A DNA stretch of 64,000 nucleotides from Candidatus Saccharimonadales bacterium (GCA_041751215.1 JBGSXW010000005.1:3664-67663); one strand, 5' to 3'; counted from the first letter of the stretch, positions 1 to 61,092 are shown. Numbers and translations are program-made. The notes: generated from the letters alone by a model not told the origin.

Positions 1-29
1 GGGACAACAAGCAAACCTCGTTACTATTT

Positions 30-422
30 ATGGGTATTCATGCAGTAGCATTGATCATATCAGAGGCATTTTTTAGCAAAAGTGGGCTCGATGGGTACAA
101 GTTATTCCTAGAAACATATGTAGACGGCGATGAAGATGATAAAAAATTTTCTAAAATAGCTACAACTATTCATGACTGGCGTAATATCTTAGCGCATCAA
201 TGGATAGGATCTACTGGGCATGATATAGGTTACGATTACGAAATGGATCTAGGTTGGCAAACTCGCAACGAGGTTACCTTTATAAACCCGAAAATTTATT
301 GTGAACAATACTTGTCCGTATTTCGTGCTGGCGGGAGAATGTGGAGCTATAAAGAACTTTTTTCTGAGGAACAGCTCGAAGAAATTAAATCGAGAATCAT
401 CGCCAAGTACGTAAAAAAATAA
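30..422 (+). CDS. hypothetical protein (frame stays open to the window edge, so possibly 5'-truncated)
   Basis: 130-aa ORF immediately upstream of the RM gene; no motif I recognise. Confidence 0.4.
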   Translation: MGIHAVALIISEAFFSKSGLDGYKLFLETYVDGDEDDKKFSKIATTIHDWRNILAHQWIGSTGHDIGYDYEMDLGWQTRNEVTFINPKIYCEQYLSVFRAGGRMWSYKELFSEEQLEEIKSRIIAKYVKK

Positions 423-499
423 CTATGCTGTGGGTATTTGGGTTACTTTTGTTTATAGCCTAACAACGTTAGAATATAGTTAAGGATGAGAAAAATATA

Positions 500-3400
500 A
501 TGGCAAACCTTTTTGGAAAAAACAAACTACGTGATAAAGCACTGCGATTAGACACTGAGAGCCTAGAAGACAAAATCGCAATTGTTAAAACATGGCATCA
601 CGACTACCACAACGGTAGCCTCAAAAAAGATAAGGAAACCTCTCGCGAACAAGCCTACAATTCAGACTTTTTCATCAAGATTCTCGGCTACAAAGAAAAA
701 CCATCTGTTCCATATAGCTTAGAACCAAAGGCAACCACTGAAAAAGGTCAGTTGCCTGATGCGGTCTTAGGTTTCACAGATGTTACGAAAGGCATTGTTA
801 ATATTGCCGCTGCAGTTGAGCTAAAAGGTGCATCCGTTGAACTTGACCGGCCACAACGCCGCGAGGGTAACATGAGCCCTGTCCAGCAAGGGTTCAAGTA
901 TAAGAGCCAGTATCGCAATTGTCCGTTTGTGATTGTGAGTAATTTCTGGGAGTTTCGTCTCTATCACGATAACCAACTAGACTACGAGCTTTGGACACTC
1001 GACGATCTGATTGACCCTAAAGATGACTACATTAAGTTCAAAACCTTCTACACCCTTATCCATAGCGATAATCTCACAAGTCCGAAGGGTTCTAGCAAAA
1101 CAGAGGACTTATTGAGTGATGTTCGTCTTGAGCAGGAAGAAATCGGTAGAAAATTCTATAAAGTATACGGTCAGGCACGTCATGAACTATTGCGTGATAT
1201 TTATAAGAAAAATGAGCATATAAAAACTGATATTGATACCGGCATCGAAAAGGCACAAAAAATTATTGACCGTATTGTTTTTGCTTGTTTTGCCGAAGAT
1301 CGAGGTTTACTTCCTGACGATACATTGCAGCGAGTTATTAAGGCAGCAGATACTTCTACGTTTGGCGGGTCTTTATGGTCTACCTTTAAGGCGTTCTTTG
1401 AAGCGATTGACGCAGGTAGCGAGAAACTTGATATCCCAGATGGTTACAATGGCGGCCTATTTGCACATGACTCAGTGTTAAATAGTCTCCAGATTAGCGA
1501 TGATGCTTTGCGTTCCGTCGCTAATATTAGTAACTACAATTTCGCCGAAAGCCTGAGTGTTACCATTCTTGGTCATATCTTTGAACAATCCATAAGCGAC
1601 CTAGAGGAAATAAAAAATAAGGTTAATGAAAGTCACAGTCTCAATACATTGCAGCAGTCTCGACGTAAGAAGGATGGCATATTTTATACTCCTGACTACA
1701 TAGTTCGTTACATCGTAGATAACTCACTAGGCACTTACTTGCGTGAATACGAGGAGCGATTCAAGCAAGAGTTTAGCCTCAAAGGTGATATCAACGACAA
1801 AAATTATGAGAAACGCGAGAAGCAGGCTTACAGCAAGTACCAAGAATTTCTGCAAAATGTGAAGGTTGTTGACCCTGCTTGTGGTTCTGGTGCGTTTCTT
1901 GTCTACGTGTTTGACTACTTGCTAGCGGAAAACAAGCGGGTTGCGAGCATACTTGGTAACAACCTTTTCTCGAGTGAAGACTATATAAAGTCAATTCTAC
2001 AAAACAACATTTATGGTGTTGACCTAAATGAGGAGTCAGTTGAGATTACTAAGCTTTCACTATGGCTTAAGACTGCTCAAAAAGGTAAGAAACTTACTGC
2101 TCTTGATGACAATATCAAATGCGGTAATAGCTTGATTGACGATCCTACTATAGCTGGTAGCAAAGCCTTCAATTGGCAAGAACAATTTGCGGATATTTTC
2201 AAAGATGGTGGGTTTGACATAGTTGTAGGCAACCCACCGTATGGTGTTAGTTTTAGTGCCGAAGAAAAAGCATACTTGTCCAAGTTTGATAATCTTGTGT
2301 CAGATTACGAAGCCTATATTTATTTCATATCACTTGTAAAGAAACTAGTAAAACCTGCTGGGATGCTATCCTACATATTCCCAAATACTTTCCTATCGAC
2401 ACTGTACGGTAAGAAGTACCGAGAGCAGCTTTTCTCAAATTATTCAGTTTTTGAAATGGTTGATTTATCGCGTGACCCAACATTTAGTGATGCTAGCGTT
2501 CGCACAGTAATCGTTAGCATTAAAAATTCTTCTAAAAACTATAGTTCACAGCTTAATGTCATAGACATAAGTAAAAATATTGTCTCATTTGCAAAGTATA
2601 GTAAGGATGACTTGTTGAAGAATAGTGAGAATCTACTAGTCCTCTTTACGCGGAGTGACGAAGCCAGTGCGTTAGTACAAAAAATACTAAGACAATCTAA
2701 GCCACTCAAGGACTACTTTTCAATCTCTCAGGGCTTAATACCCTACGATAAGTATCGCGGGCATGATGAGCATACGATTAAAAATCGTATCTGGCATTCT
2801 GATACTAAGAAAGATGAAACATATCGTCGAGAGCTTAAGGGCGGTGATATTACTCGATACTCACTCAACTGGAATGGTGGCTTATGGATTAGCTATGGTG
2901 ATTGGCTTGCAGCACCTCGTGAACCTAAGTTTTTTAGAGAGCCACGAATACTTGTCCGGGAAATCACCGATGATCAGCTTTACTGTGTATTTACAGATGA
3001 GGAATATTACAATACGCCATCATTAATTAATTGTGTAGGTAATAAGGGCGTTGATCAAATGTCAATCCTCGCAATTATGAATTCAAAACTCCTAGGATGG
3101 TATCATAACAACACTTCACCGAAGGCTAACAAGGGATTATTTCCAAAAATTCTCGTCAATGACGTTCGCAACCTACCAATAGTTACACCTACCAACAGTA
3201 AAGAGCTGTCCAGTAGGGCTGCAGTTATGCTGAATTTAAATAACAAGCTCGAAAGTAATTCTCAACACTTTCAAAACCTCCTATCCAGCGAATTCAAGTT
3301 AGATAAGTGGCCCACCAAACTATCAAAGTGGTGGAGACTTGAATTTACTGACCTTGTGACAGCATTAAAACTTAAGTTGTCTCTTCAGCAAAAAGATGAG

Positions 3401-3541
3401 CTGTTGCAGCTTTTTGAAAAGTATCGCCTTGAATGCTCGGAGCTTGACTTAAAAATTAATCAATTCGACCGTGAAATCGACCAGCTTGTCTACGAACTTT
3501 ATGACCTCACTAATGAAGAAACTAACCTTATAGAAAAATAA
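500..3541 (+). CDS. type IIG restriction endonuclease / N6-adenine DNA methyltransferase (MmeI-like fused enzyme)
   Basis: 1013 aa. N-terminal PD-ExK-like motif (PDAVLGF...AAAVELKG). SAM motif I VVDPACGSGAFLV. Catalytic motif IV VVGNPPYG. Long C-terminal specificity-like region. Confidence 0.85.
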   Translation: MANLFGKNKLRDKALRLDTESLEDKIAIVKTWHHDYHNGSLKKDKETSREQAYNSDFFIKILGYKEKPSVPYSLEPKATTEKGQLPDAVLGFTDVTKGIVNIAAAVELKGASVELDRPQRREGNMSPVQQGFKYKSQYRNCPFVIVSNFWEFRLYHDNQLDYELWTLDDLIDPKDDYIKFKTFYTLIHSDNLTSPKGSSKTEDLLSDVRLEQEEIGRKFYKVYGQARHELLRDIYKKNEHIKTDIDTGIEKAQKIIDRIVFACFAEDRGLLPDDTLQRVIKAADTSTFGGSLWSTFKAFFEAIDAGSEKLDIPDGYNGGLFAHDSVLNSLQISDDALRSVANISNYNFAESLSVTILGHIFEQSISDLEEIKNKVNESHSLNTLQQSRRKKDGIFYTPDYIVRYIVDNSLGTYLREYEERFKQEFSLKGDINDKNYEKREKQAYSKYQEFLQNVKVVDPACGSGAFLVYVFDYLLAENKRVASILGNNLFSSEDYIKSILQNNIYGVDLNEESVEITKLSLWLKTAQKGKKLTALDDNIKCGNSLIDDPTIAGSKAFNWQEQFADIFKDGGFDIVVGNPPYGVSFSAEEKAYLSKFDNLVSDYEAYIYFISLVKKLVKPAGMLSYIFPNTFLSTLYGKKYREQLFSNYSVFEMVDLSRDPTFSDASVRTVIVSIKNSSKNYSSQLNVIDISKNIVSFAKYSKDDLLKNSENLLVLFTRSDEASALVQKILRQSKPLKDYFSISQGLIPYDKYRGHDEHTIKNRIWHSDTKKDETYRRELKGGDITRYSLNWNGGLWISYGDWLAAPREPKFFREPRILVREITDDQLYCVFTDEEYYNTPSLINCVGNKGVDQMSILAIMNSKLLGWYHNNTSPKANKGLFPKILVNDVRNLPIVTPTNSKELSSRAAVMLNLNNKLESNSQHFQNLLSSEFKLDKWPTKLSKWWRLEFTDLVTALKLKLSLQQKDELLQLFEKYRLECSELDLKINQFDREIDQLVYELYDLTNEETNLIEK

Positions 3542-3546
3542 TAGAA

Positions 3547-4098
3547 ATGGGCAAATTAGAGATTTTAGATGTGTTATTAAGCAATATGGCTGTTTCTATC
3601 GGTAGAAACATACAGACGATTGAATCCATTGCGACAATCGCTGCTATTTGCGCTGGTCTTTGGTGGTTCTATAAAAGACGAGAAAAAGCTCCCAGGGCTA
3701 ATGTAGAACACCAAGTTAAGTTCATTGACCTAAAAAATGGAACTGTCTATGTGGGTGTTCATGTAAGCATTCAAAATACCGGCAATGTGATAATACGGCC
3801 AAAGGTCGAACAGAATCCCTCAAGCGTTGTAGTTGTTGAAGAACTTATGCCATACCTCAATAAGAAGCTTGAGTCACAGGAGCTATCGCCTGAGTATAAA
3901 ATGGGCTTTCTTGGGTCACGGACTTTTCCGCCAAAGATATGCATAGAGCCAGGAGAGAAGCAATCAATTCTATTCGAGTTTGTAATTCAGGGCAGTACTA
4001 AATCGATTAAAGTTTATTCACATATAGATAACAGCTATAATGGTGGTATAGGTTGGGACGCAACAACAATTCATGAGGTAAGATATGAGCGAGAATGA
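3547..4098 (+). CDS. hypothetical membrane protein
   Basis: 183-aa ORF 6 nt after the RM stop; one N-terminal hydrophobic helix (IATIAAICAGLWWFY). Confidence 0.5.
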   Translation: MGKLEILDVLLSNMAVSIGRNIQTIESIATIAAICAGLWWFYKRREKAPRANVEHQVKFIDLKNGTVYVGVHVSIQNTGNVIIRPKVEQNPSSVVVVEELMPYLNKKLESQELSPEYKMGFLGSRTFPPKICIEPGEKQSILFEFVIQGSTKSIKVYSHIDNSYNGGIGWDATTIHEVRYERE

Positions 4099-4288
4099 CC
4101 AGAAAAAGATAATCCAAGAGCAAGCTGAGGCAAATCAGAGAATTATTCAAGCTGTTGAGCAACAGCAAGAGGGCACATTTCAAGGTCAAGCACCTGTCAA
4201 TGAAAGAATAAAGCAAATGGGACCAAACGAGAGAATAGAAAATAAACCACAGCCTTCACCTCCAGAAGAAGACAGTAAACCAGAATAG
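4085..4288 (+). CDS. hypothetical small Q/E-rich protein
   Basis: 67-aa ORF overlapping the previous stop by 14 nt; low complexity. Confidence 0.3.
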   Translation: MSENDQKKIIQEQAEANQRIIQAVEQQQEGTFQGQAPVNERIKQMGPNERIENKPQPSPPEEDSKPE

Positions 4289-4357
4289 GTAGCTCCTAAG
4301 CACAAGAATGTGTTAGGCTAGTCCTACATGATGTAAGGGTATACTCTCCTCGCTTTA

Positions 4358-4424
4358 CTATAGCTTTTTTGCGTTTTTATAGTATAGTTAGCGCATCAAC
4401 GCATGAGTTTTGTGTGTTGGGAAC
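4358..4424 (+). promoter_or_regulatory. conserved 5' module of GC-rich cassette 1 (putative -10 TATAGT at 4383-4388, then leader GCGCATCAACGC...TTGGGAAC)
   Basis: Aligns with 5630-5698 (CTATAG..TTTTT..TATA(G/A)T..GCG(C/T)ATCAA(C/T)GC..TTGTG..GTTGGGAAC). Confidence 0.5.
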
Positions 4425-4471
4425 TTTTCGGTGATGTCAGAAGTAATTTCGACGATTAGAAAGGTGTTACG

Positions 4472-4678
4472 GTGACGAACATCGGTAGAACACATGATAT
4501 CGGGCTCGTCTACGACGGCCCCGCCAACATGCCCGCCCCTCGACCGATCGAGGCCGCGGAAAACCGCTTCCTCGACGCAGTCGCAGTCCTGATGGTGATC
4601 GCCATACCCTTTGTGATCGCCATACCCTTTGTGTTCGCCTACCGCAAGTTCCGCGAGTTGATCTTCCGCAAGTCCTAG
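4472..4678 (+). CDS. small hydrophobic protein, GC-rich cassette 1
   Basis: GTG start 5 nt after AAAGGTG; 68 aa; contains a duplicated VIAIPF segment in a predicted TM helix. Confidence 0.45.
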   Translation: MTNIGRTHDIGLVYDGPANMPAPRPIEAAENRFLDAVAVLMVIAIPFVIAIPFVFAYRKFRELIFRKS

Positions 4679-4709
4679 CAGACGGTTCGCCGTCAGAAAG
4701 GAGCGTCCA

Positions 4710-5096
4710 ATGGAGACGCTGCGCAGCAATCAGATCAAGCTGAAGCCGCTCAGAACAACGGGCGACTATGTGTTGGCCGATGAGCTTGGCAACAACTTCT
4801 TCGGCCTGGGGACGATCGAGCAGGCTCTGACCTTTCGGGGTCAGCGCTTCCTCTACCGGGGCTGCACGATCACCATCATCGAGCATGATGAGATGCCCGG
4901 TGCCGTCTTGCCGGTAGTGAGAGTCCACTCCGCCCCCTGCAAGCAGTGCCAGGCCAAGGTTTCGACCATCTGCCATCTCGAGACCTCGTGGACCCTCGTC
5001 CAGCTCAGGCTCAAATACGAGATGTGGCGCCATCGTTGCAACTACGACCGCCTGGTCGTCGACGTCCTGCCGCCCATCAACGTCAAGCCCACCTAG
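4710..5096 (+). CDS. small CxxC protein, paralog 1 (GC-rich cassette 1)
   Basis: ATG preceded by AAGGAG. Shares the pattern GQxF..G...(~25 aa)..CxxC...(8 aa)..W with ORFs 5124-5501 and 5826-6578. Confidence 0.55.
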   Translation: METLRSNQIKLKPLRTTGDYVLADELGNNFFGLGTIEQALTFRGQRFLYRGCTITIIEHDEMPGAVLPVVRVHSAPCKQCQAKVSTICHLETSWTLVQLRLKYEMWRHRCNYDRLVVDVLPPINVKPT

Positions 5097-5123
5097 GTCA
5101 CCTACCACAAGCGAGGCGGTTCA

Positions 5124-5501
5124 ATGCCAAGCAACATCCAACTCCAACCCATCCGCAATCGAAGGGACCGGCGTCGAGCAGCTCAGTACGGCAATTCCCT
5201 GTTCGGGCTCGGTCTCCTTCCGGAAGAAGGCCTCACAAGCGGACAGAAGTTCACCTTCTGCGGCTATCTGATCCAGTACTTCGATGGTCGATTGGTTTCG
5301 CCGTCGAGAGATGGTCAATCCAACTTCTACCGAAGCAAGGTCACGTGCTTCTGCCCGTGCTGTGGCGAGGAGATGAGCGAACTGTTCAACTTCGACACCG
5401 AATGGACCGAGGTTCATCAGCACATGTGCGGAGAGCGTGACGCCCACCAGTGTGACGCGCCCGAGCTGGCTGTACCGGATGCGAACTTCGCTTCCGTCTG
5501 A
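5124..5501 (+). CDS. small CxxC/zinc-ribbon-like protein, paralog 2 (GC-rich cassette 1)
   Basis: SD-like GAGGCGG upstream; motifs SGQKFTFCGY, CPCCGEEM, TEW, and a second Cys pair MCGERDAHQC. Confidence 0.55.
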   Translation: MPSNIQLQPIRNRRDRRRAAQYGNSLFGLGLLPEEGLTSGQKFTFCGYLIQYFDGRLVSPSRDGQSNFYRSKVTCFCPCCGEEMSELFNFDTEWTEVHQHMCGERDAHQCDAPELAVPDANFASV

Positions 5502-5558
5502 CATCATCCACCGTGCGCCGGCAGGAACCACTCTTTCCCAAGAGACTCCTGCCGGCGC
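5499..5558 (+). repeat. conserved 3' module of cassette 1 (TGA-CATCATCCACC + 40-nt nested hairpin CGGCAGGAACCACTCTTTCCCAAGAGACTCCTGCCGGCGC)
   Basis: The 40-nt core 5519-5558 is identical to 6599-6638. Confidence 0.8.
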
Positions 5559-5575
5559 CATCAACTTTGTTTAAG

Positions 5576-5597
5576 CCCTCAGATTGAGGGATTTTTT
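5576..5597 (+). terminator. intrinsic terminator candidate
   Basis: CCCTC-AGATT-GAGGG followed by ATTTTTT. Confidence 0.5.
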
Positions 5598-5629
5598 ATG
5601 CTCAAAATCAACAAAAGCACTACCGTAAA

Positions 5630-5698
5630 GCTATAGACTTTTTACTGTTAATCTTGTATAATCTGCGTATCAATGCGTCTTGTGACGGGTTGGGAACG
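5630..5698 (+). promoter_or_regulatory. conserved 5' module of GC-rich cassette 2 (extended -10 TGTATAAT at 5655-5662, then leader GCGTATCAATGCG...TTGGGAAC)
   Basis: Homologous to 4358-4424. Confidence 0.5.
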
Positions 5699-5825
5699 TT
5701 AAGATGATGGTCAATTCCCCTAAGTTTAATTCGAGTACTCGAATGTGGCTTTGAGGTTGCACTAAACATAGGCAGCTTCTGAGCCATATTCGAGCAACAC
5801 TCGTGACAACAAGGGAGATAACAAC

Positions 5826-6578
5826 ATGTTCAAGTTCATCAGCAAGCTGTTCAAGAAGAAGTCGGAGGAATCGGCCTACAAGATCTGGGGTCGCCACGAG
5901 CTGCCGCTCCCCAAGGGCCCAAACAGCACCTGGACGGACCGCCTGATCGGTCAGGAGTTCGTGATCGACGGCTACAACTTCGTGATCGTCGGGGAATCGA
6001 ACGCCCACGAGGGGATCTCGGCCCGTCTCGAACTTCCGTGCAAATCCTGTGGCCAGCCACATCGCTTGTGGCTCAGCGTCACCGCGACCTGGGATGATGT
6101 GCTGATGACGATCTTGAGCTTCGCCGAGAAGAGCTGCGACGACTGCAACCAGGTGCTCAACGGTGATATCGACCGCGTCGAAGAGGAGATGGCGAAGAAC
6201 GTCGAGGAGTGGAAAGGCATCGAGAAAGCTCTCGTGGCTTCCGGCCTCGACCTCGATTCCCTCGACCTCTTGGTCAACGACTCCGGCGAAGTCGACTGCG
6301 TCAGCCAGTTCCTCTGGCTCAAGTCTGGCTGGGTACCGCTCTGGCTGTACAGCCGTCGTGGTTTCCCAAGGGATCTGAGCAAGATAAACGAGCTCAAGCA
6401 CATGCTCGGCGTCAACGCCCACATCGAGGGAAACCTGATCTGCTTCTCGCCGATCCATGTGATGCGACCCAGTCGGATCGAAGAGTTCAACGAAGAGCTG
6501 GCAGAACTCCGCAAGCACCAGAACACCATGGAAGCCCACCGCCTCGCCCGCGCGTCGCGCAACACGAGCTCCATCTGA
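5826..6578 (+). CDS. CxxC/zinc-ribbon-like protein, paralog 3 with a C-terminal extension (GC-rich cassette 2)
   Basis: ATG preceded by AGGGAG; motifs IGQEFVIDGY, CKSCGQ, TATW, CDDC; 250 aa. Confidence 0.55.
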   Translation: MFKFISKLFKKKSEESAYKIWGRHELPLPKGPNSTWTDRLIGQEFVIDGYNFVIVGESNAHEGISARLELPCKSCGQPHRLWLSVTATWDDVLMTILSFAEKSCDDCNQVLNGDIDRVEEEMAKNVEEWKGIEKALVASGLDLDSLDLLVNDSGEVDCVSQFLWLKSGWVPLWLYSRRGFPRDLSKINELKHMLGVNAHIEGNLICFSPIHVMRPSRIEEFNEELAELRKHQNTMEAHRLARASRNTSSI

Positions 6579-6638
6579 CCATCATCCACCCCTTGCGTCG
6601 GCAGGAACCACTCTTTCCCAAGAGACTCCTGCCGGCGC
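6576..6638 (+). repeat. conserved 3' module of cassette 2
   Basis: TGACCATCATCCACC plus the same 40-nt hairpin as 5519-5558, followed by a T-run. Confidence 0.8.
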
Positions 6639-6664
6639 ATTTTTCTTTTCATCGCCCTTTTCCA

Positions 6665-6854
6665 CGCATCAGCTAAAACTCCTGAATTTGGGAGGGAGAA
6701 ACCCGGCGTAGCGAGGACTGTCCGCCAGCCGGCGGACGGGTTCCGCAGCCGCCCGAGTCCTTGGGTGAGCCAAGCTCATGAGAGTTTTTACAGCAGCGGG
6801 AAAGTTTTGAGCCACTTTTTAAAAAGTGGCGACCACCCCCGTCGTGGAAACGAC
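6665..6854 (-). repeat. element A, copy 1 (subfamily A1)
   Basis: Near-identical over long stretches to 47225-47395, and reverse-complement homologous to 19134-19311 and 55449-55636. Contains the palindrome GCCACTTTTTAAAAAGTGGC (6811-6830). Confidence 0.8.
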
Positions 6855-7296: not shown

Positions 7297-7465
7297 AGCT
7301 CCCCTCCTTTGTAATTACTTAAGCTTATTCTAACACTGGCGCAATTAAACCCCAATTGACTCTGTGGTTGCTTGTGCTATAACTGAACAGTTCGCTTTAG
7401 GGGTGAACGAGGTGTACCAGAGGCCTCAGAAGCAAATACTCTGGTAGTACGTTGAGGAGGAAATC

Positions 7466-7816
7466 TTGGGCGTCATAACGGGTAACCGGGTTGGCCGCGA
7501 GGAACGAACTGCAAGTAGTGCTCGGCGAATCGATGAGGGCATGCTACCTGACGGACACGCCGTGGTGCTGATCCTGGGCAGTACGACCTACATCTGCTCA
7601 CACTGCCGCTACGCAGTCGTCATCGGTGAGTACACCCACAAAACGTCACCGGCCGGTACAGACCTGCTCGCTTTCAAAGACGAAGCTGGTGAGCACGACG
7701 AGCGGATCTGCGGCAAGCATTTCACCATGTACGACGATCGCCGCGACCAGGCCAAGCGCGCGCCGCTACCACAGTGGTTCGACCGCCTCGGATCAGTGAT
7801 CTACGACGAAGACTGA
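7466..7816 (+). CDS. hypothetical GC-rich Cys-containing protein
   Basis: TTG start 5 nt after GAGGAGG; CSHC...CGKH motifs; GC-richer than the flanks. Confidence 0.45.
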   Translation: MGVITGNRVGREERTASSARRIDEGMLPDGHAVVLILGSTTYICSHCRYAVVIGEYTHKTSPAGTDLLAFKDEAGEHDERICGKHFTMYDDRRDQAKRAPLPQWFDRLGSVIYDED

Positions 7817-7906
7817 CGGCTTTGGGTCGGGTGCGAGCGTAAGCTCACAAAGCACCCGGCCCTAGCCAGTCAATCCGAATCTCCTCCTCAACTTTTTTTC
7901 TTGAAT

Positions 7907-12987: not shown

Positions 12988-13902
12988 ATGAACTTAAGTA
13001 ACGTTATCGTCGACTTTTTAGAGCATTTAGAAATCGAGCAAAATCGCTCGCAAATGACAATTGCCAATTACCACCACTACCTTATGCGTTTAGTTGAGTT
13101 TAGTGACGATGTTGATATAAGCAAGCTAGACGCCGAAGTAATACGTCGATGGCGCCTTTGGCTCAATCGATACAAAGATGCTCACGGGACGGAACTATCT
13201 AAGACTACTCAGAACTACCACTTAATTGCGCTGCGCAGTTTGCTTCGCTACTGCATGAAAAGAGATATCAAAACCCTCAGCCCAGATAAGATTGAGTTAG
13301 CCAAAGTCAGCCGAAAACAGGTTACATTCCTAAGTATCGAAGAAGTTGAACGACTGCTAGACCAGCCTGATCTTAGTAAGCTAACAGGGATGCGAGACCG
13401 TGCAATTTTAGAACTACTCTTCTGCGGGGGCCTCCGAGTGTCAGAACTTGTTAACCTAAATATCGATCACATTAACCTAAAACGATTAGAGTTTACGGTC
13501 CGCGGAAAAGGCCAAAAAGACCGCCCGATCTTTATTAGTGAACAAGCCGGTGAAGCAATTGGACGCTATCTTCAGGCCCGTCAAGATAACTTTCGACCCC
13601 TGTTTATCCACGCTGGCGGAACGCAAAGTGCGTTAGACGAAGGCGAATACACAAGGTTGAGTACAAGGAGTGTTCAAAGACTAGTTAGTCGCTACGCTAA
13701 GCTTGCTGGAATTACGAAAAAAGTCAGCCCACATACTTTGCGTCACTCGTTTGCCACCGACCTATTGATGAACGGGGCCGACCTGCGCAGCGTGCAGTCT
13801 TTGCTGGGACACAGCAATATTGGCACCACCCAGATTTACACTCACATTACCGACCCTCACCTGCGCGACGTGCACAAGAAATTCCATGGTAAAAGCCGAT
13901 AG
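12988..13902 (+). CDS. tyrosine site-specific recombinase XerC/XerD family
   Basis: C-terminal HTLRHSFATDLL..GADLRSVQSLLGHSNIGTTQIYTH. Confidence 0.85.
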   Translation: MNLSNVIVDFLEHLEIEQNRSQMTIANYHHYLMRLVEFSDDVDISKLDAEVIRRWRLWLNRYKDAHGTELSKTTQNYHLIALRSLLRYCMKRDIKTLSPDKIELAKVSRKQVTFLSIEEVERLLDQPDLSKLTGMRDRAILELLFCGGLRVSELVNLNIDHINLKRLEFTVRGKGQKDRPIFISEQAGEAIGRYLQARQDNFRPLFIHAGGTQSALDEGEYTRLSTRSVQRLVSRYAKLAGITKKVSPHTLRHSFATDLLMNGADLRSVQSLLGHSNIGTTQIYTHITDPHLRDVHKKFHGKSR

Positions 13903-19133: not shown

Positions 19134-19311
19134 GTCGCTTGCCAGCGACGTGGCATTGCCACTTTTTAAAAAGTGGCTCAAAACTACCCCGCTGCTACTA
19201 AAACACTCATGAACTTGTTTCGCACAGAACTTGGGTTACTGCGGAGTACGTATGAACAGTCCTCGTCACGCCATGTTCTGTCCTTACAAGTTCAGAGATT
19301 TTAGTAGATGC
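19134..19311 (+). repeat. element A, copy 3 (subfamily A2)
   Basis: Hairpin GTCGCT-TGCC-AGCGAC; palindrome 19158-19177; closing helix CTACTAAAA../..TTTTAGTAG; core GCGGAGTACG..ACAGTCCTCGTCACGCC. Confidence 0.8.
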
Positions 19312-19350
19312 GGGTTTATCCGAACATCTGACCCTATTTTCAGGGATGAA

Positions 19351-29718: not shown

Positions 29719-29892
29719 GTTGCTCACTGTGATTTTGAGGTGGAAATCTCGTTAATCGCGGCACTTTTACAAACTGGGCTATCCAGGGAACAATGACTGC
29801 AAGATCAAGATTGTGGCCATCGTCCCCTGGATAACCATGGGAAAAACCGGCGCCTAACCAAGCGCCCCGAACCTCAGAAAGAGGTGATTTTG

Positions 29893-30594
29893 ATGAAGCA
29901 TCCCCGCTTCCTCATCGGAGCGCTCGCCATCATGGCGCTGTCGCTCTTCGCAACCCCGGCCTTCGCGGCCACCGCAACCATCAGCCCCGCCATGGGGCCG
30001 GCTGGCACCATCGTCAACATCAGCGGTGGCGAGTGCCTGCCGACGGAGGAGTTCCCGGTCCATCCTCGGGTCGGTTTCCTCGTCCGCGACGACGACGGCA
30101 ACGAGATCCACTTCGACCTCAACGTCGATGTCGACGAAGAAGGCATGTGGAGCTTCAGCTACGAGATCCCTCTGGTGGATACGGAGTACCTGGAGTTCCT
30201 CGCGTTCTGCAGCGGTGGAAACGGTACGGATCCGGCTCAACTCGTCGACTACGACAGCCTGATCTTCACCTACGCCGAGATCGGCCCGCCTCCGACCACG
30301 GAACCCGAGCCGACCACGACCACCACCGAGGCACCGCCGACGACCGAGCAGCCGACCACCACGGTCGAGCAGCCCGAACCCACGACGGCCCCGACGGTCG
30401 CACCCACGGTCATCACCAACCCCGAGTTCACCTCGCCTCCCGGCGGCGGTGTCCAGACGGACGGTGGTGTCCCTGATGAGGCTGCGCACGAGCAGAACAA
30501 CGCGCTCGTGTTCGGGATCATGGCCGGGTTCTTCGCCCTCATGCTGTTCCTGACCAGGAACAAGAAGGCCAAGAAGGTCAACAGCACGGAGTAG
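29893..30594 (+). CDS. GC-rich secreted surface protein: signal peptide, Pro/Thr-rich linker, C-terminal hydrophobic helix + basic tail
   Basis: ATG after AGAGGTG; signal peptide MKHPRFLIGALAIMALSLFATPAFA; PTTEPEPTTTTTEAPPTTEQPTTT; C-terminus ALVFGIMAGFFALMLFLTRNKKAKK. Confidence 0.7.
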   Translation: MKHPRFLIGALAIMALSLFATPAFAATATISPAMGPAGTIVNISGGECLPTEEFPVHPRVGFLVRDDDGNEIHFDLNVDVDEEGMWSFSYEIPLVDTEYLEFLAFCSGGNGTDPAQLVDYDSLIFTYAEIGPPPTTEPEPTTTTTEAPPTTEQPTTTVEQPEPTTAPTVAPTVITNPEFTSPPGGGVQTDGGVPDEAAHEQNNALVFGIMAGFFALMLFLTRNKKAKKVNSTE

Positions 30595-30804
30595 TTCTTC
30601 CCAGCAATGCCCAGCAAGCGAGCGGTCCGGGTGGGTCATTTGATTACAGACTCAACATCTGAACATCATCTGATCCACCCGGCCCTCGCAACACACTTTT
30701 CTAGGATAGATACAGATCTCACATCTGATTAACAGATGAGAAACCTATACCTGAACTAGAAACAACAGAGGTGACACTTTATTTCCACCCCTGTTATAAT
30801 GGTA

Positions 30805-30833
30805 TTGCTTTTTATTGACTAATTTGGTATAAT
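30805..30833 (+). promoter_or_regulatory. promoter candidate (TTGCTT-17 nt-TATAAT with TG extension)
   Basis: AT-rich block upstream of a ~250-nt leader preceding the sortase gene. Confidence 0.45.
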
Positions 30834-31091
30834 ATACAAGTTCAGTTGGGAGACTCTTAACTGATGAAGGATCAACATAATGATCCGACCTTACCAAGCT
30901 TTGGCAGCAAATTGTCTAGGGATTCTTACCCGGAACTACACCCCGCCCTCCCTGGGAGCACACCATCCAATCTATTCCATCGTACTCCTCATTCGCTTAA
31001 ATAATCGTGAGAATCATCTGAGAACTTTCCGCGTAGGACTCCCTAGACAAGGGACATTCGTCATCTGGCGAATTACAACAAAGGAGCAACA

Positions 31092-31835
31092 ATGCGCTTC
31101 CCCAAGCACATCCTGTTTCTGGTCTGGTTGACACTCGTGTTTTCCCTGACCAGCGGGTCGGTGCAGCAGGAGCGCTTCATGCTCCCTCCGCAACCCACCC
31201 AGGCGGCCGCAGAAGCACCTGCGACCACCACAAGCACCACCGAAAGGCGGGATCGTGTACCAACGTCCCAGGCGTCGACCAGACCCAGCAACCCGGCAAC
31301 AACAGCTCCAGCGCAGCCGACAACGACAGCGCCGGAAACCACGCCGGAACCCGCGGGAATCCCCCGCGTGGTGGTCGAATCGATTGGGGTGGATGAACCG
31401 CTCGTCGTAGGCAACTACTTCGACGAGAACGGCAACATCTCCCCGCCGTGGCAGACAGCCAACCTCTACGGGGGCGGCTCCATGCCTGGACAGGTTGGCA
31501 CGAGCCTCATCGCAGGCCACGTTTCGTCATCGACCTATGGACCCGATGTGTTCTACAACCTCGGGAACATCCAGATCGGCGACATCGTACAGGTCAGCGA
31601 TGGCACCACCAACTTCACCTATCAGGTGACGCTCATCCGCGTTCAGGACAAGCGCCTGCTCGCAACCAGCGAAGCCCCTGGTGAAGATCCCGACGCCGTC
31701 ATTCAGTGGTCTGACATGGAACGCGTGACCGATTGGTCCGTGCTCTACCTGATCACCTGTGGTGGCGAGTTCGGAAATGTCCGCCCGGGTAGTTTCGATT
31801 CGAACATCATCGTTCGAGCCGAGATCGTCCCCTGA
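31092..31835 (+). CDS. sortase family transpeptidase (class F-like), GC-rich
   Basis: AAGGAG SD; N-terminal TM; catalytic His context LIAGHVS; catalytic Cys motif LYLITCGG; conserved Arg near the C-terminus (IIVRAE). Confidence 0.8.
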   Translation: MRFPKHILFLVWLTLVFSLTSGSVQQERFMLPPQPTQAAAEAPATTTSTTERRDRVPTSQASTRPSNPATTAPAQPTTTAPETTPEPAGIPRVVVESIGVDEPLVVGNYFDENGNISPPWQTANLYGGGSMPGQVGTSLIAGHVSSSTYGPDVFYNLGNIQIGDIVQVSDGTTNFTYQVTLIRVQDKRLLATSEAPGEDPDAVIQWSDMERVTDWSVLYLITCGGEFGNVRPGSFDSNIIVRAEIVP

Positions 31836-47173: not shown

Positions 47174-47224
47174 ATTCCTGCTTTCGCAGGAATGACCTGC
47201 CTAGCGGCAGGCAGGCTGGAGCCG

Positions 47225-47395
47225 CGCATCAGCTAAAACTCCTGAATTTGTGAGGGAGAAACCCGGCGTAGCGAGGACTGTCCGCCAGTTGGCGGACGGA
47301 CTCCGCAGCTACCCGAGTTTTGACTGAGCAAATTCAAGGATTGTTTTAGCTGCAGCGTGAAAGGTTTTGGGGCACCTTTTTTAAAAAGGTGTCGT
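47225..47395 (-). repeat. element A, copy 2 (subfamily A1)
   Basis: CGCATCAGCTAAAACTCCTGAATTTG.GAGGGAGAAACCCGGCGTAGCGAGGACTGTCCGCCAG..GGCGGACGG matches 6665-6740 almost base for base; palindrome at 47371-47393. Confidence 0.85.
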
Positions 47396-55448: not shown

Positions 55449-55636
55449 GTCGCTCCCGCGACGGGGCAATGCCACTTTTTATAAAGTGGCGTTGGAACTC
55501 TCCCGCTAACTACCAAAACAAAACTCATTAGTCTATGGGGCCAAAGAACTCGGGCAACTTGCGGAGTCCGTCTGAACAGTCCTCGTTGCGCCGGGTCTTT
55601 GGCCGCACAGCCTTAAAGAGGTTTTGGTAGAGACGG
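55449..55636 (+). repeat. element A, copy 4 (subfamily A2)
   Basis: Hairpin GTCGC-TCCC-GCGAC; palindrome GCCACTTTTTATAAAGTGGC (55471-55490); helix CTACCAAAAC../..GTTTTGGTAG; core GCGGAGTCCGTCTGAACAGTCCTCGTTGCGCC. Confidence 0.8.
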
Positions 55637-59780: not shown

Positions 59781-60374
59781 GTGTTTGATGATAGAGGTTC
59801 AACGACAGGCACCGCAGCCGGTGTCTTTGTGGGTGCAGTTGGCCTGTACTCCATCGTGCAGTTCTTTCTGCTGTTCATGGCAGCAGCTGCCATGGGAGTG
59901 GGCATCCTGGTGTTTCTGGCGGTTCTTTGTGTGTACGGAGTGATCAAGTTCCTCATTCGAGCTGCAGAGTTCGATGAAGAGTGGTACCGCAATGTCGGCC
60001 TCGCTCTGTTCTGCACCGGTGTTGCCGCAGCCGCGGGATACTTCATCGGTGTCGAGCTGGGCTTTTCTCAGGTTCTGGCCGACTTCATCGTGAACGGCGA
60101 GGAAGCGAGCGAGATGCGCAGCAACTCGATCATCTACCCGCTGATCACTCTCTTCTTCGGCATCCTGCTCGCGGGCTCGTACTTCTTGGGTCTCCCGATC
60201 ACGCTGTGGATCTTCGCGACGGACGATTTCGATGAGTGGTGGGAGATGGCTTGGTTCCCGAGCCTCAACTTCTTCATCCTGATCGTCCTCATGGAGGCTG
60301 CTCGTCTCGATCTGGGACCCCTCCAGGACGAGATGCCGACCCTGTGGGAGGCGTTCACGCAACCCTTCGGTTGA
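59781..60374 (+). CDS. polytopic membrane protein, tandem paralog 1 (GC-rich)
   Basis: GTG start after GGAGGTG; N-terminus VFDDRGSTTGTAAGVFVG; C-terminus TLWEAFTQPFG; 4-5 TM helices. Confidence 0.6.
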   Translation: MFDDRGSTTGTAAGVFVGAVGLYSIVQFFLLFMAAAAMGVGILVFLAVLCVYGVIKFLIRAAEFDEEWYRNVGLALFCTGVAAAAGYFIGVELGFSQVLADFIVNGEEASEMRSNSIIYPLITLFFGILLAGSYFLGLPITLWIFATDDFDEWWEMAWFPSLNFFILIVLMEAARLDLGPLQDEMPTLWEAFTQPFG

Positions 60375-60402
60375 CCCCTAGTTACTTCGGAAAGGAGTAA
60401 TC

Positions 60403-61092
60403 GTGTTTGATGACCGTGGTTCCAGCAGCGCTGGAACGGCCGTAGGTGTATTCCTCGGTATGGCCGGTATGTACTGGCTTGCTGTGCTCTGCACCTATGT
60501 GCTCTTCGCGTCCATAGTGGGTGCCCTGGTGGGTATCATCCTGGTCGTGGTTTACATCAGCTTCGTTATCTTTGCGGTTGGCAAGGTCCTGATGTCGATT
60601 TCTAAAGCAGGAACTGCTGGCTTCAGGATTATCGGAGTAGCCCTTGGCTTTGGAGCTGTGGCTGGAGTAATAGCTAGCTTCGCGTCTGGTTTCGGTGTAG
60701 CCGAGTGGATTGATGTAACGCTCGCTAGCTTCGGGAGCTACAACGAGGAGAGCCTGCCAGAAGTGCCTGCTTGGCGCACATATATCGTTGCTCCAATACT
60801 CGGCCTGCTCACTGTCGGCGCATACTTCGGTGGCATTCCATACGTCCTGGTCACATTGAGCTTCACTCTGGATGAAATTTTGGAGGATGAAGACGACTCG
60901 ATAGCCAAAACACCAGAAGGGTCGTTTGACCCGGACTACATCCTCATCGGAGGAAGCCTGGTGGGGTTCCATCTTGCGATAGTGACCTTCATCATGGTCA
61001 TGTTCATCGAGTCCGAAAGAGCGCACATGCTGCGACTCGGCGAGGACGTTCCATCACTACTCGAGGCCTTTTTCCAACCTTGGATAATGTAA
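60403..61092 (+). CDS. polytopic membrane protein, tandem paralog 2
   Basis: GTG start after AAGGAG; N-terminus VFDDRGSSSAGTAVGVFLG; C-terminus SLLEAFFQPWIM. Confidence 0.6.
   Translation: MFDDRGSSSAGTAVGVFLGMAGMYWLAVLCTYVLFASIVGALVGIILVVVYISFVIFAVGKVLMSISKAGTAGFRIIGVALGFGAVAGVIASFASGFGVAEWIDVTLASFGSYNEESLPEVPAWRTYIVAPILGLLTVGAYFGGIPYVLVTLSFTLDEILEDEDDSIAKTPEGSFDPDYILIGGSLVGFHLAIVTFIMVMFIESERAHMLRLGEDVPSLLEAFFQPWIM

Follow-up and report, generated by a model that had tools for sequence, protein, structure and literature searches.

Two adjacent units on the plus strand of a 64-kb stretch of Candidatus Saccharimonadales DNA (GCA_041751215.1 JBGSXW010000005.1:3664-67663; hereafter the window, in whose positions coordinates are given) carry similar non-coding ends around coding bodies that are 20-26% identical at the protein level. 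We call these units c1 (~4354-5558) and c2 (~5634-6639), and we consider the chances about even that they are tandemly duplicated accessory transcription units, which have kept the modules at both ends of their messenger RNA (mRNA) and may be controlled by a fold-back of the 3' end onto the leader. An earlier note on this DNA had described two tandem units with common 5' and 3' modules, and we can confirm this description: the 5' ends are 75% identical and the terminal hairpins are identical over 40 of 40 nucleotides (nt). The note had further proposed a modular, duplicating accessory cassette. The part of this proposal that concerns tandem, self-contained units stands, while mobility as a cassette is not supported, since there are exactly two copies and none elsewhere.

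Common ends of the two units

The 5' modules of c1 and c2 align in discrete blocks, namely CTATAG(A)CTTTTT, GTATA(G/A)T, GCG(C/T)ATCAA(C/T)GC, GGTTGGGAAC and GATG. At the other end, the similarity begins within the last codons, as (TCC)(G/A)TC TGA (C)CATCATCCACC, and stops abruptly after the 40-nt hairpin CGGCAGGAACCACTCTTTCCCAAGAGACTCCTGCCGGCGC. This hairpin occurs exactly twice in the window, at 5519-5558 and at 6599-6638, and was found in none of 100 shuffles, in agreement with the identity claimed before. Elsewhere in the window, the modules do not occur. The only other occurrences found are two contigs from the read set SRR28170463, which are 100% identical to the window and end inside the repeated hairpin, a behaviour expected of a k-mer assembler.

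Each unit was thought to have its own promoter, and a consensus scan indeed gave a sigma-70-like match in both, at 4354-4383 (c1) and 5634-5662 (c2). The c2 site, TAGACT-17-TATAAT, reaches 10 of 12 matches. The promoter-like site of c1 (4354-4388) was scanned as TTTACT-18-TATAGT, and its alignment with c2 points to the homologous -10 element TATAGT at 4383-4388 with TAGCTT as -35 element. A sigma-54 or extracytoplasmic-function-type promoter in GGTTGGGAAC was rejected on direct reading, because the spacing and the second elements do not fit; an operator box GCGYATCAAYGC common to other sites of the window was also rejected, as its frequency with two mismatches equals chance.

Both bodies are GC-richer than their surroundings, as had been noticed, with a GC content of 0.55-0.61 compared to 0.39 in the left flank and ~0.47-0.50 in the core genome. 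Set against the host genome with its ~47%, the bodies have 58-60% GC. The rise follows the genes, and the DNA of promoters, leaders and spacer stays AT-rich.

Predicted RNA structures of the mRNA ends

In both units, a segment of the leader is predicted to pair with a segment spanning the last stop codon, a feature that the earlier note did not contain. The arms in c1 are GGUGAUGUCAGA (4430-4441), which contains the AUG of a leader mini open reading frame (mini-ORF), and UCUGACAUCAUC (5497-5508), which contains the UGA stop of the last gene, p125. Within them, UGAUGUCAGA (4432-4441) forms 10 Watson-Crick pairs with UCUGACAUCA (5497-5506; P ~6e-4 against shuffled 3' segments). In c2, GAUGAUGGUCA (5703-5713), with the AUGAUG of its mini-ORF, forms 11 Watson-Crick pairs with UGACCAUCAUC (6576-6586), with the UGA stop of the gene p250 (P ~1.2e-3 against shuffles). 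The two helices differ by a compensated indel: the insertion of a G in the 5' arm of c2 is answered by the insertion of a C in its 3' arm. The helix is present in the minimum-free-energy folds of both complete units.

Is such a helix a general feature of GC-rich units? A comparable 5'-3' helix is absent from all four other GC-rich control units of the window, and we therefore rejected this explanation. An extended panhandle over the whole 5' and 3' modules performed no better than shuffles, so that we retained the short helix only. The coding bodies are not unusually structured, with a z-score of -1.1 for the c2 body, within the range of core genes; the z-score of -6.8 of the full c2 unit is due to its leader and terminator hairpins. 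A search against Rfam returned no family match, its sole match being a chance microRNA (E=1). A structured RNA gene is thus ruled out by the ordinary z-scores of the bodies together with the lack of an Rfam match.

Downstream of the -10 element, RNA folding pairs GCGYAUCAAYGC with GGUUGGGAAC in both units. The predicted 5'-terminal stem-loop of c1 (4396-4420), which begins at about the predicted transcription start, has the outer pairs UCAAC...GUUGG and a G-U-rich inner stem; that of c2 (5665-5699) combines UCAAU/GUUGG with CGUC/GACG. The outer UCAAY/GUUGG pairs are kept between the units with a C-G to U-G change, and the inner stems differ in sequence with their pairing retained. The 5' module accordingly looks, as far as folding and consensus matching go, like a promoter followed by a 5'-terminal stem-loop. 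By direct reading, the leaders contain the putative mini-ORFs mentioned above, one of 13 codons in c1 (4434-4475), whose UGA overlaps the GUG start codon of the first gene, p68 (GGUGA), and one of 16 codons in c2 (5704-5754), and the two peptides show no conservation. A long leader hairpin (5738-5794) is found in c2 only, where the 137-nt leader folds with -54 kcal/mol and a z-score of -6.0.

In the terminal hairpin of c1 (5515-5558), a G+C-rich stem of 12 bp leads through an internal loop to an apical stem of 5 bp, which is capped by a UCCC loop (-30.9 kcal/mol, z -5.9). Its counterpart in c2 together with the T-rich tract AUUUUUCUUUU (6594-6650) resembles an intrinsic terminator, with 13 bp and one G-U where c1 has G-C (-29.3 kcal/mol, z -6.0). 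This single stem difference, C to U in c2, leaves a G-U pair in the plus-strand RNA only. The T tract of the c1 hairpin itself is poor; 18 nt beyond it, a terminator scan identified a second, canonical intrinsic terminator (5576-5600), CCCTCAGATTGAGGG followed by T6. Overall, the 3' module looks like an intrinsic terminator, again on the basis of predicted folds. We made no use of a pairing of GUUGGGAAC with the hairpin loop UUCCCAA, which comprises 7 nt, lies at chance expectation and shows no covariation.

Coding bodies

The plus strand of c1 carries p68 (4472-4678), p128 (4710-5096) and p125 (5124-5501), and that of c2 carries p250 (5826-6578). Shine-Dalgarno sequences had been claimed for all four ORFs and are found on direct reading (AAAGGTG, AAAGGAG, GAGG and AGGGAG). 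The GC contents at the first, second and third codon positions (GC1, GC2 and GC3) are ~0.56/0.39/0.80-0.85 for p68 (GC3 0.80), p128 (0.56/0.40/0.85) and p250, and 0.58/0.45/0.69 for p125. The plus-strand ORFs thereby follow the universal pattern of GC1>GC2, with a very high GC3. The antisense ORFs are atypical, with either a GC1 of 0.66-0.77 or GC1<GC2. Moreover, p128 and p125 match each other with E=2e-10 in BLASTP when translated in sense, and with E=4 when the same two stretches are translated in antisense. Judged by the codon-position GC pattern (GC3 0.69-0.85) and by a paralogy restricted to sense frames, the plus-strand ORFs are the real genes, as the earlier note had it.

How closely are the proteins of the two units related? 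The note had counted three paralogs. Sequence comparison identifies p128 and p125 as clear paralogs, and p250 as probably related to them in its N-terminal ~100 amino acids (aa), while the C-terminal ~150 aa form an unrelated extension. In pairwise BLASTP against these two, p250 reaches no better than E=0.03 and 0.15, and its residues 41-96, which hold the pattern GQxF..GY..CxxC..W..V, match a profile of p128 and p125 in hhalign with E=7e-5 and a probability of 63%. The tail of p250, N-T-S-S-I, resembles that of p125, N-F-A-S-V, and the DNA around both stop codons is alike. Most likely, the c2 gene is a diverged copy with an added region of ~150 aa. Thus, although the modules do not recur outside the two units, the proteins inside them are related. 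The GC-rich 116-aa ORF p116 (7466-7816) was considered as a fourth member of the family and rejected as unrelated to p128 and p125.

The family has the pattern CxxC...(C/H)x(0-2)C, with the pairs ~27 residues apart, and a predicted core rich in beta-hairpins that is followed by a helix. This arrangement of cysteines and histidines suggests a zinc ribbon and is shared with CPxCG-type zinc-finger and zinc-ribbon proteins. The family differs from these in that its sole sub-threshold Pfam match, DUF7385 to p125 (E=0.0019), scores 18.2 bits against a cut-off of 28, that zinc-finger subdomains in the PDB match at E>1 only, and that the structural models are of low confidence. Indeed, the structural check of the family yielded no relative: AlphaFold models reached a predicted local distance difference test score (pLDDT) of 52 and 43, and a Foldseek search of the better one against the PDB returned nothing at E<0.6. 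Our guess is that the proteins are cytoplasmic, without a signal peptide, and that they have a role in conflict, be it defence, anti-defence or addiction; the latter guess stems from their fast evolution and from their position beside an island of restriction-modification and insertion sequence (IS) genes.

The hydrophobic 68-aa peptide noticed earlier in c1 corresponds to p68, which ends in a hydrophobic helix and a basic tail. Its gene contains a perfect 18-nt tandem duplication (4595-4630), GTGATCGCCATACCCTTT present twice, by which V-I-A-I-P-F is repeated in the hydrophobic helix, a sign of recent slippage.

Search for relatives

No described family with the signature of these proteins had been known to the earlier reader, and our searches agree. 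There was no match above curated thresholds in Pfam, PADLOC, PHROGs or PDB profiles, nor in PDB sequences. A word search with p250 of 5.8 billion clustered proteins returned p250 itself only, and a profile of the three proteins against 1.84 billion representatives returned p128 and p250 themselves plus two low-complexity proteins, which we rejected as false positives on reading. Phage sequences searched by tblastn, and phage and plasmid sequences searched by blastn with the entire locus, gave no relative either. For the DNA modules, a degenerate hairpin pattern with 24 fixed bases had 0 matches in 185,579 species-representative genomes, JGI metagenomes and IMG/VR. The 5' module pattern GTTCCCAAC-N6-16-GCRTTGATRCGC had 8+1 matches in metagenomes and IMG/VR, which we attribute to chance, as they lie within unrelated GC-rich coding sequence, have no common flanks and are as numerous as expected. 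The modules are also absent from the fetched loci of related Saccharibacteria. By sequence comparison, the family is without relatives in the public data searched.

Proposed mechanism

We propose that one ancestral unit, comprising a promoter, a structured leader, a gene for a small zinc-ribbon-like protein and a terminator hairpin, was duplicated in tandem. That the gene was included in the duplication is indicated by the match of p250 residues 41-96 to the p128/p125 profile and by the start of the 3' homology within the last codons. The coding bodies would then have diverged almost beyond recognition: c1 would have gained an internal gene duplication (p128/p125) and the small membrane protein p68, and the c2 gene its C-terminal extension. 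Their role as functional RNA signals would have kept the non-coding ends alike, and gene conversion has probably also homogenised the hairpin.

In this model, a sigma-70-type promoter would start the mRNA at the 5'-terminal stem-loop, which would act as a stabiliser against 5'-end-dependent decay (RNase J is encoded), and the strong G+C hairpin would end transcription and block 3' exonucleases (polynucleotide phosphorylase, PNPase, is encoded). The pyrimidine-rich tract at the last stop codon, UGA-(C)CAUCAUCC, would fold back onto the GAUG start region of the leader mini-ORF; this would close the finished mRNA and limit new initiation, similar to the fold-back inhibition of hok mRNA. Stabilisers in the leaders of ompA, ermC and aprE and Rho-independent terminators offer a parallel for the two ends, in that a stem-loop lies within a few nt of the predicted start and a G+C hairpin is followed by a T tract, in a host that encodes both RNase J and PNPase. 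The likeness does not extend to the sequences, which are unrelated, and the c1 hairpin with its poor T tract is backed by a second terminator; moreover, an identity of 40/40 between the copies exceeds what a generic terminator needs.

Several observations weigh against this model. The automatic gene caller of the public assembly picked antisense ORFs in c1, and the AlphaFold models of the proteins are poor. The promoters, start sites and terminators are predicted from consensus matches. The comparative case for the RNA structures comprises n=2 units and three changes, namely a compensated indel, a G-U-compatible change and an inner stem that is re-paired; as c1 and c2 share ancestry, their helices do not count as independent. 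Elsewhere in the 2.4-kb GC-rich stretch, perfect inverted matches of 12 nt arise by chance as well. Lastly, 40/40 identical bases beside proteins as different as these are hard to explain by purifying selection alone and would need gene conversion or a sequence-specific partner.

Codon usage in the window

A comparison of codon usage with the core genes had been suggested, and it sets the bodies (GC3 0.69-0.85) clearly apart from the latter (0.4-0.55). Across all major ORFs, there are six GC3-rich units (4472-6578, 7466-7816, 29884-30594, 31092-31835 and 59781-60374, the last with 60403-61092 beside it), which have a GC3 of 0.69-0.86 and all lie on the plus strand, compared to the core genes, which are mostly on the minus strand. 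The genome has two distinct codon-usage classes. Every GC3-rich unit is preceded by a sigma-70-like promoter, which is AT-rich, and by a long leader, and the ends of the other GC-rich units differ from those of c1 and c2.

In one pair of these units, at 29884-31835, a GC-rich sortase gene comes after a GC-rich gene for a surface protein with a signal peptide, a Pro/Thr-rich linker and a C-terminal anchor. The pair is kept in GCA_964349695.1, the closest relative found (L016 1-1257), with GC-rich bodies and AT-rich intergenic DNA. Between the two genomes, the sortase unit is 42% identical in protein and 84% in promoter DNA, compared to 76% for the core gene ychF. In this gene class, high GC3 persists over long divergence, as the sortase unit kept GC-rich in a diverged relative indicates, and the bodies evolve faster than the regulatory flanks. 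The contrast of conserved ends and diverged bodies in c1 and c2 is therefore less exceptional in this lineage. The GC-rich coding composition of the two units seems to be a long-lived class property rather than proof of a very recent transfer; possible causes of the high GC3 are a donor legacy, GC-biased gene conversion at recombining loci, or selection.

Two side observations concern other members of this class. The hairpin after the surface protein gene is re-paired in the relative (CCGGGTGGGTCA.../...TGATCCACCCGG versus CGAGAGGATCAGATA.../...TATCTGAACCCTCTCG). At 59781-61092, two tandem paralogous multi-pass membrane proteins, both starting with VFDDRGS..., have a GC3 of 0.73 and 0.60, as if one paralog were drifting towards the composition of the host.

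Alternative explanations

Unlikely, in our judgement, is an explanation by which the promoter/leader and the hairpin are recombination handles for the capture, exchange and duplication of GC-rich genes, conceivably through an integron-like hairpin site, an Xer/dif-module-like core, or allele replacement by natural transformation with the flanks as homology arms. It would account for ends that are 75-100% identical around dissimilar bodies, and both the sortase unit, with its conserved flank and diverged body, and the p116 unit, which was inserted with its promoter between genes that are adjacent in the relative, are in line with it. However, there are two copies only, and no other was found in the remainder of the window, in the related loci that were fetched or in the three large collections; the bodies of c1 and c2 are homologous and were thus not captured independently, and the different ends of the other GC-rich units do not fit either.

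Regarding the integron-like route, tandem units that end in an imperfect hairpin and have variable content between conserved ends do recall integron cassettes. Yet on reading of 5495-5575 and 6573-6655, no attC core sites (RYYYAAC ... GTTRRRY) border the stem GCGCCGGCAGGA/TCCTGCCGGCGC, each unit has its own promoter, and the array consists of only two units, which are mutually homologous. No IntI or attI adjoins the array, the only tyrosine recombinase seen being encoded at 12988-13902. The route through a dif-like core draws on GCGCATCAAC (4391-4400), which recurs as GCGCCATCAAC (5554-5564) directly after the c1 hairpin, so that GCGC(C)ATCAAC stands at both ends of c1, and on the Xer-like recombinase 6 kb away. 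The motif GCG(C/T)AT(C)AA resembles, over ~8 nt, a part of a XerC-binding arm as in the pdif modules of Acinetobacter, whose genes are bracketed by XerC/XerD sites. The units differ from these modules in lacking a XerD arm and any recognisable two-arm site of 28 bp, and c2 lacks the right-hand copy and the flanking direct repeat.

We likewise doubt that the two-unit array, modules included, came recently as a block from a GC-rich donor, such as an actinobacterial host or its phages and plasmids, with the conserved ends being donor signals. Saccharibacteria are naturally competent and live on high-GC Actinobacteria. The high GC3 would agree with this origin, as would the location beside IS1595, Replic_Relax and restriction genes and near a tRNA-Arg, and the array is missing from the syntenic position in the closest relative. 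On the other hand, the GC shift tracks the coding sequences and leaves promoters, leaders and spacer AT-rich like the recipient, and no donor homolog was found among billions of proteins or in phage and plasmid collections. The persistence of high GC3 described above, with a GC-rich sortase unit ancestral to two diverged Saccharibacteria genomes, further weakens a recent import.

Could the locus be a type I toxin-antitoxin or abortive infection system of the hok kind? Here, p68 would be a membrane toxin coupled to the leader ORF, and the mRNA would be inactive in its fold-back form, with the zinc-ribbon proteins as partners or regulators. We regard this as very unlikely. A likeness to hok-family mRNA with its 5' tac/3' fbi pairing exists: a short predicted helix of leader and 3' end would close the full-length mRNA and hide the start of the leader frame, and in c1 this frame is translationally coupled, through the overlap of its stop with the p68 start codon, to a small hydrophobic protein. 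Among type I traits, the 5'-3' fold-back is predicted in both units, and p68, with 68 aa, one hydrophobic helix and a basic tail, fits a toxin loosely; the defence-island neighbourhood would suit such a system. However, the same RNA architecture recurs in c2 without a p68-like or toxin-like gene, and neither an antisense RNA nor an antisense promoter is supported, the one weak minus-strand consensus match lying at 4792-4765. There is no sequence relation to hok and no PADLOC or Pfam match, and the transcript of the locus is 1 kb long and polycistronic. The 3' arm of the helix spans the last gene's stop codon and lies 1 kb away, beyond two further genes. We do not claim membership in the hok family, given the lack of a toxin-like gene in c2 and of an evident antisense RNA.

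Most improbable of all is a phase-variable inversion, in which a recombinase would act on the inverted repeats 4432-4441/5497-5506 and 5703-5713/6576-6586 and flip the bodies relative to a fixed promoter. In its favour, the repeats enclose precisely the coding bodies and leave promoter and terminator outside, long antisense ORFs exist and a tyrosine recombinase is encoded in the window. Against it, the antisense ORFs show no paralogy and their GC by codon position is non-coding-like, an independent unitig of this read set (SRR28170463) crosses both c2 repeats in the orientation of the window, the recombinase is housekeeping-Xer-like and not adjacent, no adjacent invertase was found, and the G-U-compatible changes favour pairing in RNA. 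A miniature inverted-repeat transposable element or IS-type element was rejected, because the 10-11 bp inverted repeats are internal to the modules, no duplication flanks both units, and there are two adjacent copies only.

Implications

If the preferred reading of two duplicated transcription units holds, these are ordinary accessory operons of a little-studied phylum, which encode an orphan protein family and whose mRNA ends have a conserved architecture of an unusual kind. To our knowledge, almost nothing is known about post-transcriptional control in this phylum, and the locus offers a compact example of an mRNA-end architecture, with a 5' stem-loop, a closing 5'-3' helix across a start and a stop codon, and an invariant terminator. 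As the genomes of Saccharibacteria and other Patescibacteria are tiny, lineage-specific, duplicated and fast-evolving genes are candidates for the interaction of the bacterium with its host or with phages. Should the locus merely be a duplicated orphan operon, its value is modest and consists of a corrected annotation and a new small protein family.

The annotation problem itself is a practical one: automatic callers choose the wrong strand in these GC3-rich islands and leave the family largely invisible in protein databases. The public calls in c1 are antisense ORFs of 213 and 141 aa (L015 8130-9209, corresponding to window ~4467-5546 on the minus strand). Owing to these calls, p125 and p68 are missing from protein collections, and the family is hidden from protein-based searches.

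A farther-reaching idea, which we consider quite improbable, is a promoter-bearing gene-cassette system of ultrasmall epibiotic bacteria, of which c1 and c2 may be the visible members and in which portable end modules of RNA or DNA, with promoter and 5' stem-loop on one side and a 3' hairpin of invariant sequence on the other, would bracket fast-evolving GC3-rich genes. Such genes may be duplicated, swapped or captured via the modules, for instance by natural transformation or by a hairpin-recognising recombinase. If true, the system would give a genome-reduced parasite a small, rapidly renewable arsenal against its actinobacterial host or against phages.

Genomic context

The host belongs to Candidatus Saccharibacteria (TM7), as the SurA-like gene next to the units has its relatives exclusively in metagenome-assembled genomes of Saccharibacteria, and the window is chromosomal, encoding PNPase, RNase J, FtsK and type IV pilus genes. 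To the left of c1 (window 1-4288; L015 1-4160, from 3.7 kb left of the window) lies a mobile/defence block with a low GC of 38-41%. It encodes an IS1595-family transposase, a Replic_Relax protein, a YjzC-like ORF, a 195-aa ORF, an MmeI-like type IIG restriction-modification enzyme (1013 aa), a 183-aa membrane protein and a 67-aa protein. The right side of c2 comprises a repeated intergenic element, DUF1761, p116, SurA, a bPH protein and tRNA-Arg. In GCA_964349695.1, whose SurA is 60% identical, SurA is directly followed by DUF1761 and then MgtE, without p116, the cassettes or the restriction island. By this comparison, the two units occupy a lineage-specific, variable region.

The p116 unit (7297-7906) is itself a GC-rich insertion: the ORF has a CxxC motif, a TTG start, a strong Shine-Dalgarno sequence and its own promoter, and it was inserted together with this promoter between SurA and DUF1761, which are 46 nt apart in the relative (L018). 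A target duplication at the site of the p116 insertion is not visible. The Xer-like tyrosine recombinase at 12988-13902, ~6 kb from the cassettes, combines a Phage_integrase domain with a SAM-like N-terminal domain and is probably a housekeeping enzyme. Inside the type IV pilus cluster, diverged direct repeats with 75-86% identity (18211-18393/18726-18908 and 21067-21204/22311-22448) probably mark paralogous pilin and ATPase genes.

The repeated intergenic element is ~170 nt long and present in four copies per 64 kb, at 6660-6832 and 47220-47392 on the plus strand and at 19155-19332 and 55468-55628 on the minus strand, one of them directly 3' of c2. It has the core CGAGGACUGU...ACUCCGCAG...CCCGAGU and a terminal bidirectional terminator GCCACTTTTTAAAAAGTGGC. 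It has no Rfam family match, and the long stem predicted for it by RNAalifold comprises 31 pairs, with compensatory changes in 7. It may represent an undescribed structured RNA or a family of Saccharibacteria akin to repetitive extragenic palindromic (REP) elements.

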